From: a virus | Lineage: Duplodnaviria; Heunggongvirae; Uroviricota; Caudoviricetes | IMG/VR virus record: IMGVR_UViG_651053023_000011 | Location: 1 to 41,897 of that record | DNA: 41,897 bases | Reading direction: 5' to 3' (one strand) | Shown: piece by piece, positions 22,840 through 28,769 of the stretch | Layout of the letters: every line of letters starts with the position of its first letter | Position numbering within the stretch: the first letter of the stretch is position 1 | Position numbers and translations under genes: made by a program | The notes under the pieces: model-generated | Seen by the model: only the letters and a program-made list of their open reading frames with translations | The model's database searches: none | Told to the model about the DNA's origin: nothing

Positions 22840-23109
22840 ATGACTAAAGAGCAACTGGAAGTAATTGTCGCCTTAATCAGCAGCCAGCAAATGGCTCTGA
22901 CTCACCTCTCACTAAAAGTCGCAAGCCTCACCGGCTGCGACAAGCAGGAGCTAGCCAATTCATTCCTTCAGGAGGGTGAACGCCTGCTAACCAGACACAA
23001 TGGCAAGCTCGCCAATGTTATTTTCAGCCAGATTGCCAGGGGTATTGAGGCAGGCGAGGAACAATCACAAGAGAACATCAGAGGAGAGATTAACGGACTA
23101 CTTCATTAA
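22840..23109 (+). CDS. hypothetical protein (opposite strand to late operon)
   Basis: 89-aa ORF from ATG preceded by AAAGGAG; tail-to-tail overlap with endolysin 3' end. Confidence 0.45.
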   Translation: MTKEQLEVIVALISSQQMALTHLSLKVASLTGCDKQELANSFLQEGERLLTRHNGKLANVIFSQIARGIEAGEEQSQENIRGEINGLLH

Positions 23110-23620
23110 ATATTGCCATAATCTCTGACTGAATTTGCTCAAAAAATGACAATTCGGTTTTTGTGCCAGCCGCTGCATTTGCCGATGCTGCGGCTTTTTG
23201 TTTATTTTTTTTCAAAACATTCTCCTGCAGAATAAAAGCTGTCATCGTTTCAACTGAAAGTGAGGCCCGTCTTTCAGTGTTTTCCCAGTCCCCGCCCCAT
23301 TCGATGGCAGTTCCCAGCTCTGCGGCAGCCTGCTTAAATGCCTGTGCGATTTTCTCGTACAGAGGCCAGTCCCATGACACCTGGCTACCAACATAAGCCA
23401 CAACATCCACCGCATCACCGGTCAGGTGACGGCTGTTCATGGTCTGGCTTTTCCCTTCCGCGACCAGTTGTTTCTGGCGCTCTTTCGTGCGCAGACCTTC
23501 CGTAATACCGAAATCAACCTCCGTCAGTTCAAGGGCGCGGCGAACGACAGCAACCAGTTGTGGTTTGACGCCCTCCAGATTTTTTTCACTGCGGCGGCTG
23601 AATCTGAATTTACCCGACAT
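23090..23620 (-). CDS. endolysin, peptidase M15 family (L-Ala-D-Glu endopeptidase-like)
   Basis: ORF with SRHLTGDAVDV motif typical of M15/VanY-type zinc peptidases; follows two membrane-protein genes. Confidence 0.8.
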   Translation of the reverse strand: MSGKFRFSRRSEKNLEGVKPQLVAVVRRALELTEVDFGITEGLRTKERQKQLVAEGKSQTMNSRHLTGDAVDVVAYVGSQVSWDWPLYEKIAQAFKQAAAELGTAIEWGGDWENTERRASLSVETMTAFILQENVLKKNKQKAAASANAAAGTKTELSFFEQIQSEIMAIFNEVVR

Positions 23621-23622
23621 AT

Positions 23623-23898
23623 TCACCTCAACAATGGAAAGATTTTTGTGACATTCCCGCGTGCACGTATCACCAGCACGCAGAACAGCAGATTAAAAAA
23701 CACTTCCAGCCAGCCCGTTGCTAACGGGCGACCACACAGATAGCTGAGGGGCGCAAAGGCATACAGCAGCATCAGCAACCAGGCCAGCCATGACATCAGC
23801 GGTTTATGTCTGGAATCACGACGACGATAAAAAAAGAGCGTCAGCACGATAACCGCGCATAACGCCACATTCAGCAATCCGGAAAGGTTACTTAACAT
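23623..23898 (-). CDS. lysis-associated membrane protein (holin or antiholin candidate)
   Basis: 91-aa ORF with three hydrophobic segments; ATG preceded by GAGGAGG; overlaps both neighbours. Confidence 0.5.
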   Translation of the reverse strand: MLSNLSGLLNVALCAVIVLTLFFYRRRDSRHKPLMSWLAWLLMLLYAFAPLSYLCGRPLATGWLEVFFNLLFCVLVIRARGNVTKIFPLLR

Positions 23899-24280: not shown

Positions 24281-24367
24281 ACTTTTTCTCCTGTAAATAA
24301 AAAAGGGCCACCAGCGGCCCGTAAAAAACACCCGTCAAAGGCACCCGCAGATACCTTTTGTGTGGTG

Positions 24368-24520
24368 TTATTCAGATTTACGCAGTAAAGGCCAGAGTAC
24401 GGCCAGCGCCATCGCCACCAGCACACCATCTGCCAGCACCGACATCAGCCGTCCGGTGAAATCCACCGCCACTACCAGAAACAGCAGGATGGCAGCCAGC
24501 ACAAGGCGCGCACTTTTCAC
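24368..24520 (-). CDS. small hydrophobic peptide (about 50 aa)
   Basis: GTG start overlapping TerB-like stop (GTGA); two hydrophobic stretches; below track cutoff. Confidence 0.3.
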   Translation of the reverse strand: MKSARLVLAAILLFLVVAVDFTGRLMSVLADGVLVAMALAVLWPLLRKSE

Positions 24521-24942
24521 AGGTACTGCTCCAGCGGCAACTGCAGCGCCTGAGCAATTTTCTTGAGCTGCGCTTCTTCATCCGGACCAATGCCGTCCTG
24601 GTCAGCAATATCGAGACACAGGCACAGCACATCAACCGCTTCGGCGGTTCCTGCCACATCAGCCAGTTCACGCAAAGCCTGAGCATTCGCACTACGAGGT
24701 GACGCTTCATAACGGGCGCGGATATTTGCACTCATTTGTGCAATCTCACCGGAGAACGGCGCAAAGGCAGGAAGTGCTGCAATGGTTTTTTCCAGTACAG
24801 CGATTTCTTTCGCATCACAGGTGCCGTCGGCGAATGCTATGGAATACGCGCCCCAGACGGTCGCCTCCACTGCGTCGCGGTTCTCCATCTTCTTCACTTC
24901 AGTAATGGCCTTGCGGGTTTTCTTTTTGAAAATACCAAACAT
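24517..24942 (-). CDS. TerB-like domain protein
   Basis: 140-aa ORF with AAGGA RBS; paired acidic motifs (AFADGTCDAKEIAVLEK and LDIADQDGIGPDEEAQLKKIAQ) typical of TerB fold. Confidence 0.65.
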   Translation of the reverse strand: MFGIFKKKTRKAITEVKKMENRDAVEATVWGAYSIAFADGTCDAKEIAVLEKTIAALPAFAPFSGEIAQMSANIRARYEASPRSANAQALRELADVAGTAEAVDVLCLCLDIADQDGIGPDEEAQLKKIAQALQLPLEQYL

Positions 24943-24961
24943 CGTGACTTTTCCTTTTAGT

Positions 24962-25053
24962 GGGTGAGCCTGCGCCCGGGGGTGACCAGTCCACAGAGAA
25001 AGTCACACTGACCATCCCGTAAGCTCACCCCTGAAAGGCTCTGTGGTTTTTTT
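24962..25053 (-). other. structured leader with interleaved dyads upstream of TerB-like gene
   Basis: GGGTGAGC (24962-69) pairs GCTCACCC (25023-30); CCACAGAG (24991-98) pairs CTCTGTGG (25039-46); T7 run follows on + strand. Confidence 0.35.
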
Positions 25054-25126
25054 GATGTGCGCCGGGCGTGGCGCGGAAATAAAAAAGGCCCGCCGTAGCG
25101 AGCCGCATAAATACTGAATTCTGAAT

Positions 25127-25150
25127 AAAAAAAACCGCCTGGCGTGGCGG
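25127..25150 (-). terminator. rho-independent terminator downstream of tRNA genes
   Basis: CCGCC/GGCGG stem with 6-nt loop followed on the minus strand by T8. Confidence 0.5.
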
Positions 25151-25516
25151 TCTATGGCATAAAATGGCATGAAGAGAACGCGATGATTTTATTATGACCA
25201 GAGACGTCGGGTGCCTCCCGAAACATCCAGTCCTGCATGGATGCTGTGGTTTCCCGCAAAACCGACTCTTTCAACCACCCTCGCACTGAGGAACGTCTCT
25301 GGGGTGTTATTTACAACACCGGAATGATACATTACCAGCCCTGCCAGGAAATACAAATCTCCACCAGTAATGCACCATTCCACTATTGTAAAAAAACAGC
25401 ACTGGTACCGTAATAAATAATATTCATTACAGAACAGGATGTGGTAAGGAGTTAGGGTAAAACATCCCACACATATAATGTGTCAGTGCCTGAAACAGCC
25501 TGGCATCGTCCTCTGC

Positions 25517-25591
<75 letters not shown>

Positions 25592-25594
25592 ATA

Positions 25595-25670
<76 letters not shown>

Positions 25671-25835
25671 AATGGTTCCTCAAGAAAAATAAAATGCCCC
25701 AGCAATACCCCCTCGGAACCGGGTGCGAATATTAACGAGATAAGATATTTTTTCAACAAAAATCAATGTCAATATTTGTAAATATACTCATATATTTTTA
25801 TTATTTCAATAATTAATAAATAACAGAAAGCGTGT

Positions 25836-26882
25836 TTAAAGATTATTTTCTATTACAGTTACAGTTTGATTAAATCTCTCTTTTTCCAGTTCCACACCAA
25901 TTGCCCGACGCCCCAGCGTCATTGCGGCTTTAATTGTGGAGCCTGACCCCATAAAGAAGTCGACAACCAAGTCTCCCGGACGACTGCTGGCGGTAATTAT
26001 CTGACGTAACATATCCGCTGGTTTTTCACAGGGATGTTTGCCCGGATAATACTGCACAGGCTTGTACGTCCAGACATCGGTATAAGGAACAGCAGCCGAT
26101 ACGGAAAAATAACGCCGTAAAGATTTGTACTCTGCCAGCAGGCTGGCATATTGTCGGTTCAGTTCACTGTATGCGCTGACCAGCTGGTGATGTGGTTTTT
26201 CCAGTTCTCCGCGCTGATGCTTTTCTGCTGCTACACGTGCAAATAACACCTGCAGTTTTCTGTAATCACCCTCGTTCGGCAACTGCCACTGACTTGTACC
26301 AAACCAGTGTGACGCCATGTTTTTCTTTCCGGTCGCTTCCGCTATCTGTTTCGATGTTACCCCAAGTGAATCACGCGCATCACGAAAGTAAGAAATCAGC
26401 GGGGCCATGACGTGCTGTTTTAGCTCGCGTCCCTTTGCCGCATAGCCGTCATTTTTGGGCTGGTATGGCCCCTGATAATGTTCTGCAAACAGAATGCGTT
26501 CTGTTGCAGGGAAATACGCCCGCAGGCTTTCCTTGTTGCATCCGTTCCAGCGTCCGGACGGCTTCGCCCAGATAATGTGGTTCAGCACATTAAAGCGCTG
26601 ACGCATCATGATTTCGATATCAGATGCCAGGCGATGACCACAGAACAGGTAGAGACTTCCGGCAGGTTTCAGTACCCGCCAGAATTGCGCCAGACACTGA
26701 TCCAGCCATTTCAGGTAATCATCGTCGCCCTTCCACTGGTTATCCCAGCCCTCGGGCTTCACTTTAAAGTATGGCGGGTCTGTGACTATCAGATCGACAG
26801 AGTTTTCCGGTAAGGTCTGGATAAATTCCAGGCAATCAGCGTTGATTAACTCACAACTGGATATTTTTACAGTATTGGCCAT
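25836..26882 (-). CDS. DNA methyltransferase, beta-class (N6-adenine or N4-cytosine), orphan
   Basis: 348-aa ORF with TDPPY catalytic motif near N-terminus and FxGSGST SAM-binding motif near C-terminus; no adjacent restriction enzyme. Confidence 0.85.
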   Translation of the reverse strand: MANTVKISSCELINADCLEFIQTLPENSVDLIVTDPPYFKVKPEGWDNQWKGDDDYLKWLDQCLAQFWRVLKPAGSLYLFCGHRLASDIEIMMRQRFNVLNHIIWAKPSGRWNGCNKESLRAYFPATERILFAEHYQGPYQPKNDGYAAKGRELKQHVMAPLISYFRDARDSLGVTSKQIAEATGKKNMASHWFGTSQWQLPNEGDYRKLQVLFARVAAEKHQRGELEKPHHQLVSAYSELNRQYASLLAEYKSLRRYFSVSAAVPYTDVWTYKPVQYYPGKHPCEKPADMLRQIITASSRPGDLVVDFFMGSGSTIKAAMTLGRRAIGVELEKERFNQTVTVIENNL

Positions 26883-27686: not shown

Positions 27687-28769
27687 ATGAAAAAATTAAC
27701 AGTGGCAATCTCTGCTGTAGCAGCATCAGTATTGATGGCTATGTCCGCTCAGGCAGCTGAGATTTATAACAAAGACAGCAATAAATTAGATCTGTACGGA
27801 AAAGTTAATGCCGGGCACTACTTCTCCTCTAACGATAAACACGATGGTGACAAAACTTATGCTCGTCTGGGATTCAAAGGTGAAACCCAAATCAATGATC
27901 AACTGACTGGTTTCGGTCAGTGGGAATATGAATTCAAAGGCAACCGTGCTGAATCTCAAGGTTCCTCCGCAGACAAAACTCGTCTTGCATTTGCTGGTCT
28001 GAAATTCGGCGACTACGGCTCCATCGATTATGGTCGTAACTACGGTGTAGCATACGATATCGGTGCATGGACTAACGTTCTGCCAGAATTCGGTGGCGAT
28101 ACCTGGACCCAAACAGATGTATTCATGACTGAACGCACCACAGGTGTTGCAACTTATCGTAACAACGACTTCTTTGGTCTGGTTGAAGGTCTGAATTTTG
28201 CTGCTCAGTATCAGGGTAAAAATGACCACACTGACGTAACTCAAGCTAATGGTGATGGTTTCGGTTTCTCCACTACTTATGAGTATGAAGGATTCGGCGT
28301 AGGTGCAACCTATGCTAAATCTGACCGCACTAATAATAAGGTTATCTACGGTAACAACAGCCTGAATGCATCTGGTCAAAATGCTGAAGTATGGGCAGCT
28401 GGTCTGAAATATGACGCTAACAACATTTACTTGGCCACTACCTATTCTGAAACCCAGAATATGACGGTATTTGCTGATCGCTTCGTCGCTAATAAAGCTC
28501 AGAACGTTGAGGCTGTTGCACAATATCAGTTCGATTTTGGGCTGCGTCCGTCCGTGGCTTACCTGCAATCTAAAGGTAAAGATCTCGGAGTATGGGGCGC
28601 TCAAGACTTAGTTAAATATGTTGATGTAGGCGCAACCTATTACTTCAACAAAAATATGTCCACTTTTGTTGACTACAAAATCAACCTGATTGATAAGAGC
28701 GATTTCACGAAAGCATCTGGCGTTGCTACCGATGATATCGTTGCTGTAGGTATGGTTTACCAGTTCTAA
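27687..28769 (+). CDS. outer membrane general porin (OmpC/NmpC/Lc-like), prophage-encoded
   Basis: 360-aa ORF with AAGGA RBS, signal peptide ending AQA, N-terminal [17 protein letters not shown]-terminal ...YQF. Confidence 0.9.

Follow-up and report, generated by a model that had tools for sequence, protein, structure and literature searches.

What do a TerB-like protein and a small hydrophobic protein, whose genes overlap and lie between the tRNA genes and the holin genes of a lambdoid prophage, do for the phage that carries them? The question is raised by a locus in a stretch of 41,897 nucleotides of viral DNA (Caudoviricetes; IMG/VR record IMGVR_UViG_651053023_000011, positions 1 to 41,897), the whole of which is called the window below. 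A preliminary description, made from the sequence, had viewed the pair as a possible moron that affects membrane stress or lysis timing. Our analysis identifies it as an already known, ordinary and widespread phage accessory cassette, a member of the TciA/TciB module of phage P1. The best overall explanation, to which we give a probability of roughly 0.5, is that the locus holds a lambdoid-prophage copy of the P1 tciA-tciB module and that its products form a membrane-tethered TerB complex of the lytic phase.

Both ORFs were found on the minus strand at the positions previously assigned to them, and the two tRNA genes are on the same strand as tciA (Table 1). The pair is located between these tRNA genes and the holin genes, within the interval from Q to the lysis genes where lambdoid phages place cargo, and the cargo of this interval also includes a porin gene, the DNA methylase gene and the tRNAs; the earlier placement of the pair in a cargo slot is thus borne out. 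An AAGGA Shine-Dalgarno motif stands 9 nt before the ATG of tciA, in line with the good ribosome-binding site described earlier, and the length of the ORF is corrected from 140 to 141 aa. The tetranucleotide GTGA is common to the tciA stop and the tciB start (...CTG TGA / GTG AAA), giving a 4-nt overlap, and GGAG is present upstream of the tciB start. Between tciB and the next gene there is a gap of 87 nt that contains a terminator. No ter gene was found in the neighbourhood of the tRNA, methylase, holin and endolysin genes, terC, terD and terE being absent there, and the PGAP annotation of a near-identical region lists none over about 6 kb on each side. A promoter-like site precedes the tRNA-Thr gene.

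Table 1. Features of the tciA-tciB cassette and its surroundings (positions in the window).
Feature	Position	Strand	Remarks
tciA	24517-24942	(-)	141 aa, ATG start
tciB	24368-24520	(-)	50 aa, GTG start, DUF3927
tRNA-Thr	25595-25670		upstream of tciA
tRNA-Gly	25517-25591		upstream of tciA
N6/N4 DNA methylase	25836-26882		further upstream than the tRNAs
Antiterminator Q	28958-29341		farther upstream of the pair
Phage_holin_8, Phage_holin_3_7 and M15 peptidase genes			downstream of tciB; Pfam
Intrinsic terminator, GGCTCGCTACGGCGGGCC + T-tract	25087..25104	(-)	terminator scan; upstream cassette edge
Second upstream terminator	25132-25153		just upstream of the 25087-25104 terminator
tciA leader, non-coding, ~145 nt	24943..25086	(-)	locus comparison
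Intrinsic terminator, GGGCCGCTGGTGGCCC then TTTTTTATTT	24295..24320	(-)	terminator scan and sequence reading

The proposed membership of the first protein in the TerB family was examined by profile searches, and it holds. The Pfam TerB model (PF05099) matched TciA above its cut-off (29.9 bits against 24.4, E=7.5e-7) over residues 11-57 only, and PHROG 632 ('tellurite resistance') matched over the full length with 218.9 bits. TciA of phage P1 is 87% identical over 141 of 141 residues. A search of the PDB with the single TciA sequence gave no match, and a subfamily profile was needed to reach the TerB of Klebsiella pneumoniae (2JXU): built from 36 TciA-subfamily sequences of 29-68% identity, it matched this structure with E=6.1e-25, positions 6-142 aligning against 12-149. 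TciA is a soluble, cytoplasmic, stand-alone protein of probable TerB fold and a full-length homolog of the TerB encoded in terZABCDE operons; it is a member of the TerB family and yet not part of a ter system. In the AF2 model (pLDDT 84.8), a basic N-terminal tail (MFGIFKKK...) that is predicted to be disordered is followed by six helices. The top PDB neighbour of this model in Foldseek is 2H5N (prob 1.00, TM 0.53-0.59, with an E of only 0.05), a protein that is weakly matched by the subfamily profile and is probably TerB-like, also according to Pfam.

The duplicated acidic motif noticed earlier is also upheld. Across the 36 sequences of 29-68% identity, the only invariant or near-invariant columns are D39, G40, E46, G117 and E122, which make up two DG-x5-E motifs (D39-G40...E46 and G117...E122); D116, just before G117, is invariant in the enterobacterial clade. 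Three cysteines (C42, C107 and C109) are likewise invariant within the enterobacterial TciA clade and are missing from the wider subfamily. The TciA family is small, with 173 representatives at E<=1e-3 among 1.84 billion, and a pN/pS of 0.14 was obtained for tciA. Among the NCBIfam models, DjlA gave a match far below its threshold (E=0.035, 13.7 bits against a cut-off of 162), and the PADLOC models, including those of Shango and Bunzi, gave no match at E<=0.1 for either TciA or TciB. Judged by sequence, TciA is much closer to the TerB of ter operons than to DjlA.

The second ORF had been described as a GTG-initiated, hydrophobic ORF of about 50 aa that overlaps the stop codon of the first, and the GTGA overlap and two hydrophobic segments in the hydropathy profile agree with that description. 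Its product, TciB, is matched by Pfam DUF3927 (PF13064; 57.8 bits, cut-off 25, residues 4-48 of 50) and by PHROG 1470 ('TciB-like'; 88.7 bits), and it is 51% identical to TciB of phage P1, which is of the same length class. Both ends of TciB carry basic residues, VDFT is conserved in its loop, and the second helix opens with ADG. From the basic residues at both ends and the short VDFT loop, TciB is predicted to be a two-transmembrane hairpin in the inner membrane with both termini in the cytoplasm (N-in/C-in). The tciB frame is under purifying selection, its pN/pS being 0.47, whereas the two alternative frames gave 0.78 and 1.42. The arrangement as a whole goes far beyond chance. The evidence supports TciB as a real, conserved and translationally coupled membrane protein.

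Conservation of the small downstream ORF, whose lack would have spoken against the preliminary description, was found both in this selection and in its occurrence: all 80 of 80 IMG/VR viral loci compared (TciA identity at least 94%) have a tciB ORF that begins at this GTGA. The full-length loci of species-representative genomes all encode a protein of about 50 aa with two hydrophobic segments, from an ORF that overlaps the tciA stop through GTGA, TAATG or TGATG. Two divergent loci have kept the overlapping small ORF though tblastn no longer recognises it as TciB. The three DUF3927 variants that were looked up, in eight places, are encoded directly after a TerB gene or an apparent TerB remnant, and what seems to be a disrupted tciA was also seen. 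In addition, tciB is shortened, or has an insertion after it, in five loci (L023, L025, L027, L048 and L024). Two kinds of database entry were set aside: a 196-aa TerB-DUF3927 fusion (P0061), considered as evidence of interaction, probably reflects a 1-nt indel in a single contig, and the entries for a 165-aa 'N-extended TerB' (P0008) are apparently artefacts of frameshifts.

A similar arrangement extends beyond the close relatives. Temperate phages with TerB relatives of 31-40% identity also have a small membrane ORF right after the TerB gene, overlapping its stop by 4 nt in three loci and following it after a 3-nt gap in one. One metagenomic prophage has a DUF3927 protein as the partner, and three Pseudomonas-type prophages encode an unrelated partner of 67-69 aa with a single hydrophobic helix at its N-terminus and a tail that contains Cys. 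In PMBT3, a virulent Pseudomonas phage, the TerB relative stands alone, without a membrane partner, in the replication module, which indicates that the TerB protein can act by itself. A TerB gene coupled to a gene for a small membrane protein is therefore a conserved theme in temperate phages, in which the partner is replaceable. The genes tciA and tciB themselves are co-inherited, are under purifying selection, and are arranged for coupled translation.

The cassette is common in sequenced genomes. DNA that is 100% identical was found in several porcine ETEC/O141 chromosomes, where PGAP names the products 'tellurite resistance TerB family protein' and 'DUF3927 family protein'. Of 5426 complete E. 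coli genomes, 687 (~13%) have similar DNA, at 743 places in chromosomes and 170 in plasmids, and it also occurs in P1-type phage-plasmids. The pair directly precedes the holin genes in the majority of prophage loci of E. coli, Citrobacter and Salmonella; it lies away from the lysis genes in P1, in elements of Erwinia, Rosenbergiella and Pseudomonas, and in some others. In one locus (L102) it is placed between cII-like genes and replication genes, in the Pseudomonas prophages it belongs to an apparent early operon near the repressor gene, and in some other elements it adjoins recombination genes. The lysis cassettes beside the pair range from near-identical to unrelated (Holin_8 identity 47%-100%, the gene being missing in some loci), across loci in which TciA identity is at least 87%. 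In P1, tciA and tciB belong to the ban operon, whose promoter overlaps C1 operators and which also holds a dicF-like region, three tRNAs and the ban helicase gene. CRISPRi on P1 scored tciA, tciB and tciC as non-essential, and their knock-down had no plaque phenotype (PMC10695390). In P1-like phage-plasmids, tciABC forms a variable region that is missing from about half of subgroup 1 (PMC9603915). These data support tciA-tciB as an accessory module that is dispensable for the growth of P1. Its correspondence with the pair in the window had been overlooked in the preliminary description.

The edges of the cassette could be defined by comparing about 100 loci. In most of them, homology to the window starts at about 25084-25113 and is lost further upstream; the leader is common to about 86 of the ~100, and the sequence beyond it to only 6-17. 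At the place of the upstream terminator, other loci have different stem sequences that still form a hairpin followed by a T-tract. The downstream edge is marked by a terminator hairpin (24320-24305) with its T-tract, between tciB and the ribosome-binding site of the holin gene. The comparison shows a mobile unit of ~0.8 kb composed of a terminator, a conserved and possibly structured leader, tciA, tciB and a terminator.

Indels that distinguish the loci have lengths other than multiples of three, so the leader is taken as non-coding; a 38-codon upstream ORF (24899-25015) was rejected for the same reason. Its RNAalifold consensus structure has 35 pairs, with 97% of cells paired. In the predicted fold, CCUUU (25038-25034) pairs with AAAGG of the Shine-Dalgarno region (24957-24953), and GGGGUGAGC (25031-25023) pairs with GCUCACCC (24969-24962). 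Five pairs change on both sides, compared with 1.1 in shuffled alignments (0/500), in a test in which the sequences are very similar and the structure was derived from the same alignment; the z-score of the single sequence is only -1.74. A helix that hides the ribosome-binding site of tciA is thus suggested, not proven. An alternative helix covering the start codon (GTGACTTT with AAAGTCAC) and a pseudoknot were also considered, and RNAalifold preferred the helix that sequesters the Shine-Dalgarno motif. Neither the leader nor the spacer that follows the tRNAs matches an Rfam family. A simple consensus scan from the upstream terminator to tciA detected no sigma-70-like promoter, though weak or non-sigma-70 promoters could escape such a scan.

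These features bear on when the pair is expressed. With no promoter of its own detected and two terminators upstream, tciAB in the prophage is expected to depend mainly on RNA polymerase that Q has made resistant to terminators, and hence to be transcribed late, along with the holin genes; some read-through of the terminators may occur in lysogens. Given the lack of a promoter-like site in the leader, the flanking terminators, the C1-repressed operon of P1, and the settings in early operons and in a virulent phage, expression looks lytic rather than of the lysogenic-conversion 'moron' type, and we infer that all of these settings are lytic-phase ones. The earlier suggestion of a moron thus stands in part, in that the cassette is accessory and has its own downstream terminator, and loses ground in that no promoter was found in the leader and the settings are of the lytic type.

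A possible mode of action can be put together as follows. The prophage cassette, probably promoterless and part of a Q-dependent late operon, would be made mainly through antiterminated late transcription, and the leader helix that occludes the Shine-Dalgarno motif may gate the translation of tciA further. The overlap of the two genes would lead to coupled and roughly equimolar synthesis. As an inner-membrane hairpin with both ends in the cytoplasm, TciB might tether TciA or be regulated by it, a pairing that resembles that of TerB and TerC, a membrane protein, in ter operons, and the combination in DjlA of a TerB-like domain with a membrane helix; published work also links TerB domains to the membrane. 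We infer contact between the two proteins, the topology of TciB and metal binding in this scheme. As the least certain step, the TciA-TciB complex would act as a dispensable accessory factor of the lytic phase at the cytoplasmic membrane. Its most plausible roles would be to guard the membrane, its potential or the ion balance of the infected cell, or to exclude incoming phage DNA or pore-forming colicins. Clusters of ter genes confer phage-inhibition (Phi) and colicin-resistance (PacB) phenotypes, and by analogy the phage pair might be a minimal version of these rather than a system for tellurite detoxification. A broader and more tentative proposal, which we hold to be rather unlikely, is that a general two-part phage module, extending from Enterobacterales to Pseudomonas phages and having a swappable membrane partner, serves as a minimal Ter-like exclusion or anti-defence system. 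Produced in the lytic phase and, in lambdoid phages, placed behind a leader that may conceal the ribosome-binding site, it would stop incoming phage DNA or colicins at the inner membrane, or disarm host defences that sense the membrane; if so, a function would be defined for the first time for a TerB fold that works as one of two proteins. The searchable literature yielded no functional experiment on either protein, and the names tciA and tciB are given on homology only.

Several other explanations were weighed against this one. The pair might be lysogenic-conversion cargo, expressed from the prophage and giving the host resistance to tellurite, colicins or phages, as the ter cluster of R478 does. 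The true full-length homology of TciA to the TerB of ter operons agrees with such a role, as do the terminators on both sides of the cassette, which many morons also have, its position in a cargo hotspot beside the porin, methylase and tRNA genes, and the occurrence of TerB domains in the Shango and Bunzi defence systems. In addition, tciA/tciB in the tRNA region have already been proposed as morons that need experimental test (PMC6799933). However, terC, terD and terE were not found nearby, which makes tellurite resistance from tciA-tciB unlikely, and the authors describing PMBT3 (citing Taylor 1999) did not expect tellurite resistance from terB alone. The conserved leader without a promoter-like site in the simple scan, the repressor-controlled operon of P1, the homolog in the strictly virulent phage PMBT3 and the lack of any PADLOC match also speak against cargo of this kind, and we regard lysogenic conversion as unlikely. 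A role in lysis timing was among the suggestions of the preliminary description; here TciB (regulated by TciA) would act like an antiholin or steady the membrane potential, and thereby delay or sharpen the triggering of the holins. Such a modulator would account for the position of the pair, which immediately precedes the holins in the majority of the E. coli, Citrobacter and Salmonella prophage loci, for its probable late co-transcription with them, and for the size and two-helix shape of TciB, which resemble those of small holin- or antiholin-class proteins. The same pair, however, is far from the lysis genes in P1, Erwinia, Rosenbergiella, Pseudomonas and other elements, accompanies unrelated or missing lysis genes while TciA itself varies little, is separated from the holin gene by a terminator, and can be knocked down in P1 without a plaque phenotype. 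A dedicated role in lysis timing is therefore not favoured, on account of the non-lysis contexts, the unrelated lysis cassettes and the terminator before the holin gene, and we consider it distinctly unlikely.

It is also conceivable that a membrane-anchored TerB protein supplied in trans imitates or blocks TerB-domain proteins of the host, as a counter-defence factor or a mimic in host signalling. Candidate targets would be the membrane-helix and TerB-like part of DjlA, which feeds Rcs signalling, and the TerB sensors of Shango and Bunzi. According to the literature, DjlA, in which a TerB-like domain comes after a membrane helix, modulates IgaA-RcsD, and Shango and Bunzi are TerB-containing anti-phage systems in which TerB is proposed to survey the membrane. 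The presence of TerB domains in two validated defence systems, the weak DjlA match (E=0.035), and lytic-phase expression and occurrence in a virulent phage, which would suit host takeover, speak for such mimicry. It would nevertheless be purely an analogy; TciA is much nearer to ter-operon TerB than to DjlA, and neither protein is similar to the PADLOC models of Shango and Bunzi, so that we think this reading quite improbable. Finally, the cassette might be decaying, functionless passenger DNA that hitch-hikes in a recombination hotspot. The tciB genes that are cut down or trailed by insertions in the five loci mentioned above, an apparently disrupted tciA, and the absence of the operon from about half of the P1 subgroup 1 phage-plasmids are what decay would produce. 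Yet both genes are under purifying selection, the pair and its overlap are kept across genera of Enterobacterales and, at 31-40% identity, in Pseudomonas phages, and the leader is conserved across differing upstream contexts; we therefore give very little credence to a functionless passenger. The reading that we prefer remains that of a P1-type tciA-tciB module whose products would form a membrane-tethered TerB complex in the lytic phase.

The genes, their names and the idea of a possible moron are already in databases and the literature, and the additions made here are modest: a conserved coupling in which the membrane partner can be exchanged, the defined boundaries of the cassette, and the conserved leader that possibly occludes the Shine-Dalgarno motif. 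TerB domains are widespread: at least two anti-phage systems contain them, as do DjlA and ter operons. The simplest natural setting in which such a domain is found with a membrane partner is tciA-tciB. It could serve as a convenient two-gene model of TerB action at the membrane. The 'tellurite resistance' label that such prophage genes carry is an annotation by homology and should not be taken for a phenotype.

Compared with known systems, the pair shares with Shango and Bunzi a TerB domain and a proposed association with the membrane, but those systems include helicase/ATPase or other effector genes, none of which adjoins tciA-tciB. DjlA, the membrane-anchored DnaK co-chaperone of E. coli, likewise combines a membrane helix with a cytoplasmic TerB-like domain. 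In DjlA, however, the anchor and the domain are parts of one polypeptide and are followed by a J-domain, whereas TciA and TciB are two proteins without a J-domain, and the sequence similarity to DjlA is marginal. TciA resembles the TerB of ter operons (2JXU; IncHI2 plasmid R478) in its size, the duplicated DG...E motifs, the predicted helical fold and full-length homology. The gene after terB in ter operons is terC, which encodes a membrane protein, just as the gene after tciA does. The differences are that the prophage lacks TerZ, TerA, TerC, TerD and TerE, that TciB is a predicted 50-aa hairpin while TerC is a large multi-spanning protein, and that the three invariant cysteines are specific to the enterobacterial TciA clade.

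The closest system is the tciA-tciB(-tciC) gene set of P1 (P1_gp074-076) in the ban operon, for which the operon facts were taken from the notes of the P1 GenBank entry. The P1 gene tciC was not found after the prophage tciB: in a tblastn search with P1 TciC, only the P1-type loci L001 and L090 were matched, and there was no match in L002, which shows 100% identity to the window in the interval 24300-25000. The P1 leader is unrelated to the leader in the prophage, and the P1 pair is C1-controlled and placed before a tRNA-Ile gene and the ban helicase gene, whereas the prophage pair is probably Q-dependent and is placed before the holins. Beyond the 87% (TciA) and 51% (TciB) identity, the two phages are alike in that stop and start codons overlap in both (by 1 nt in P1 and through GTGA in the prophage), in that tRNA genes and a DNA methyltransferase gene lie upstream, and in that the pair is accessory and non-essential.

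In the window, tRNA-Thr and tRNA-Gly may constitute a small transcription unit of their own, insulated from tciAB (tciA, of the TerB family, and tciB, of DUF3927); the promoter-like site and the tandem terminators on either side of them are listed in the table. The spacer between tRNA-Gly and the terminators is common to about 30 related loci, and no gene is annotated in it by PGAP. Its long hairpin gave matches to microRNA families, all of which were below threshold.

Features located in the window and in three Pseudomonas-type prophage loci
Feature	Location	Strand	Details
M15 endolysin ORF	window 23090-23626	-	178 aa
Two tandem intrinsic terminators	window 25087-25153	-	3' of tRNA-Gly
Spacer, tRNA-Gly to terminators	window 25192-25516	-	~360 nt; long hairpin at 25305-25397
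Promoter-like site	window 25781-25809	-	TTGAAA-17-TATATT, 10/12; 5' of tRNA-Thr
Gram-negative porin gene, full-length	window 27687-28769	+	PF00267, 497.7 bits
C4 antisense RNA and isrK, tandem	window 33801-33989	-	Rfam: C4 83.3 bits, isrK 58.8 bits
67-69-aa ORF after TerB homologue	L103 3441-3644; L104 3441-3644; L105 3442-3651		Pseudomonas-type prophages

In the Pseudomonas-type prophages L103 and L104, the small ORF following the TerB homologue has a 4-nt overlap with the TerB stop codon, and in L105 it starts 3 nt past that codon. Its product, which is unrelated to DUF3927 and has no match among Pfam families, carries a single hydrophobic helix at the N-terminus and a conserved tail, GSCxWYGxQTxRxTK...VGCxVK.

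Genes 82-97% identical to the E. coli tciA were also found in genome contigs labeled as a Bacillota MAG, Pseudomonas lundensis, Acinetobacter idrijaensis, and Kocuria sabuli (L083, L087, L098, and L099). Several of these copies come from very short contigs or from the ends of contigs, and the labels probably stem from mis-binning or contamination and not from a genuine host range. Two aberrant architectures among database proteins, a 196-aa TerB-DUF3927 fusion from one Logan contig (P0061) and 165-aa TerB proteins with a 24-aa N-terminal extension translated from the conserved non-coding leader of tciA (P0008 and P0020), look like artefacts of single-base indels rather than real forms.

Compared with its counterpart in the closest RefSeq prophage, CP080223 (125 aa), the longer M15 endolysin of the window differs by a single-base indel that shifts the frame past ...EWGGDW, and the C-terminal KTLKDGPHFQLKR is thereby replaced by ~63 unrelated residues. 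The lost segment includes a His, a possible zinc ligand. In the window the enzyme may be inactive, or the indel may be a sequencing error.

The C4/isrK tandem adjoins ORFs of Ash/Rha-type regulators (33384-34905), and together they represent a P1/P7 immI-like antirepressor control region within a lambdoid prophage. The porin gene is situated between the antiterminator Q and the methylase, on the opposite strand, and shares its cargo interval with tciAB; at this position CP080223 instead has a GIY-YIG nuclease pseudogene. The placement of the porin gene resembles the Q-nmpC-lysis order of prophage DLP12.
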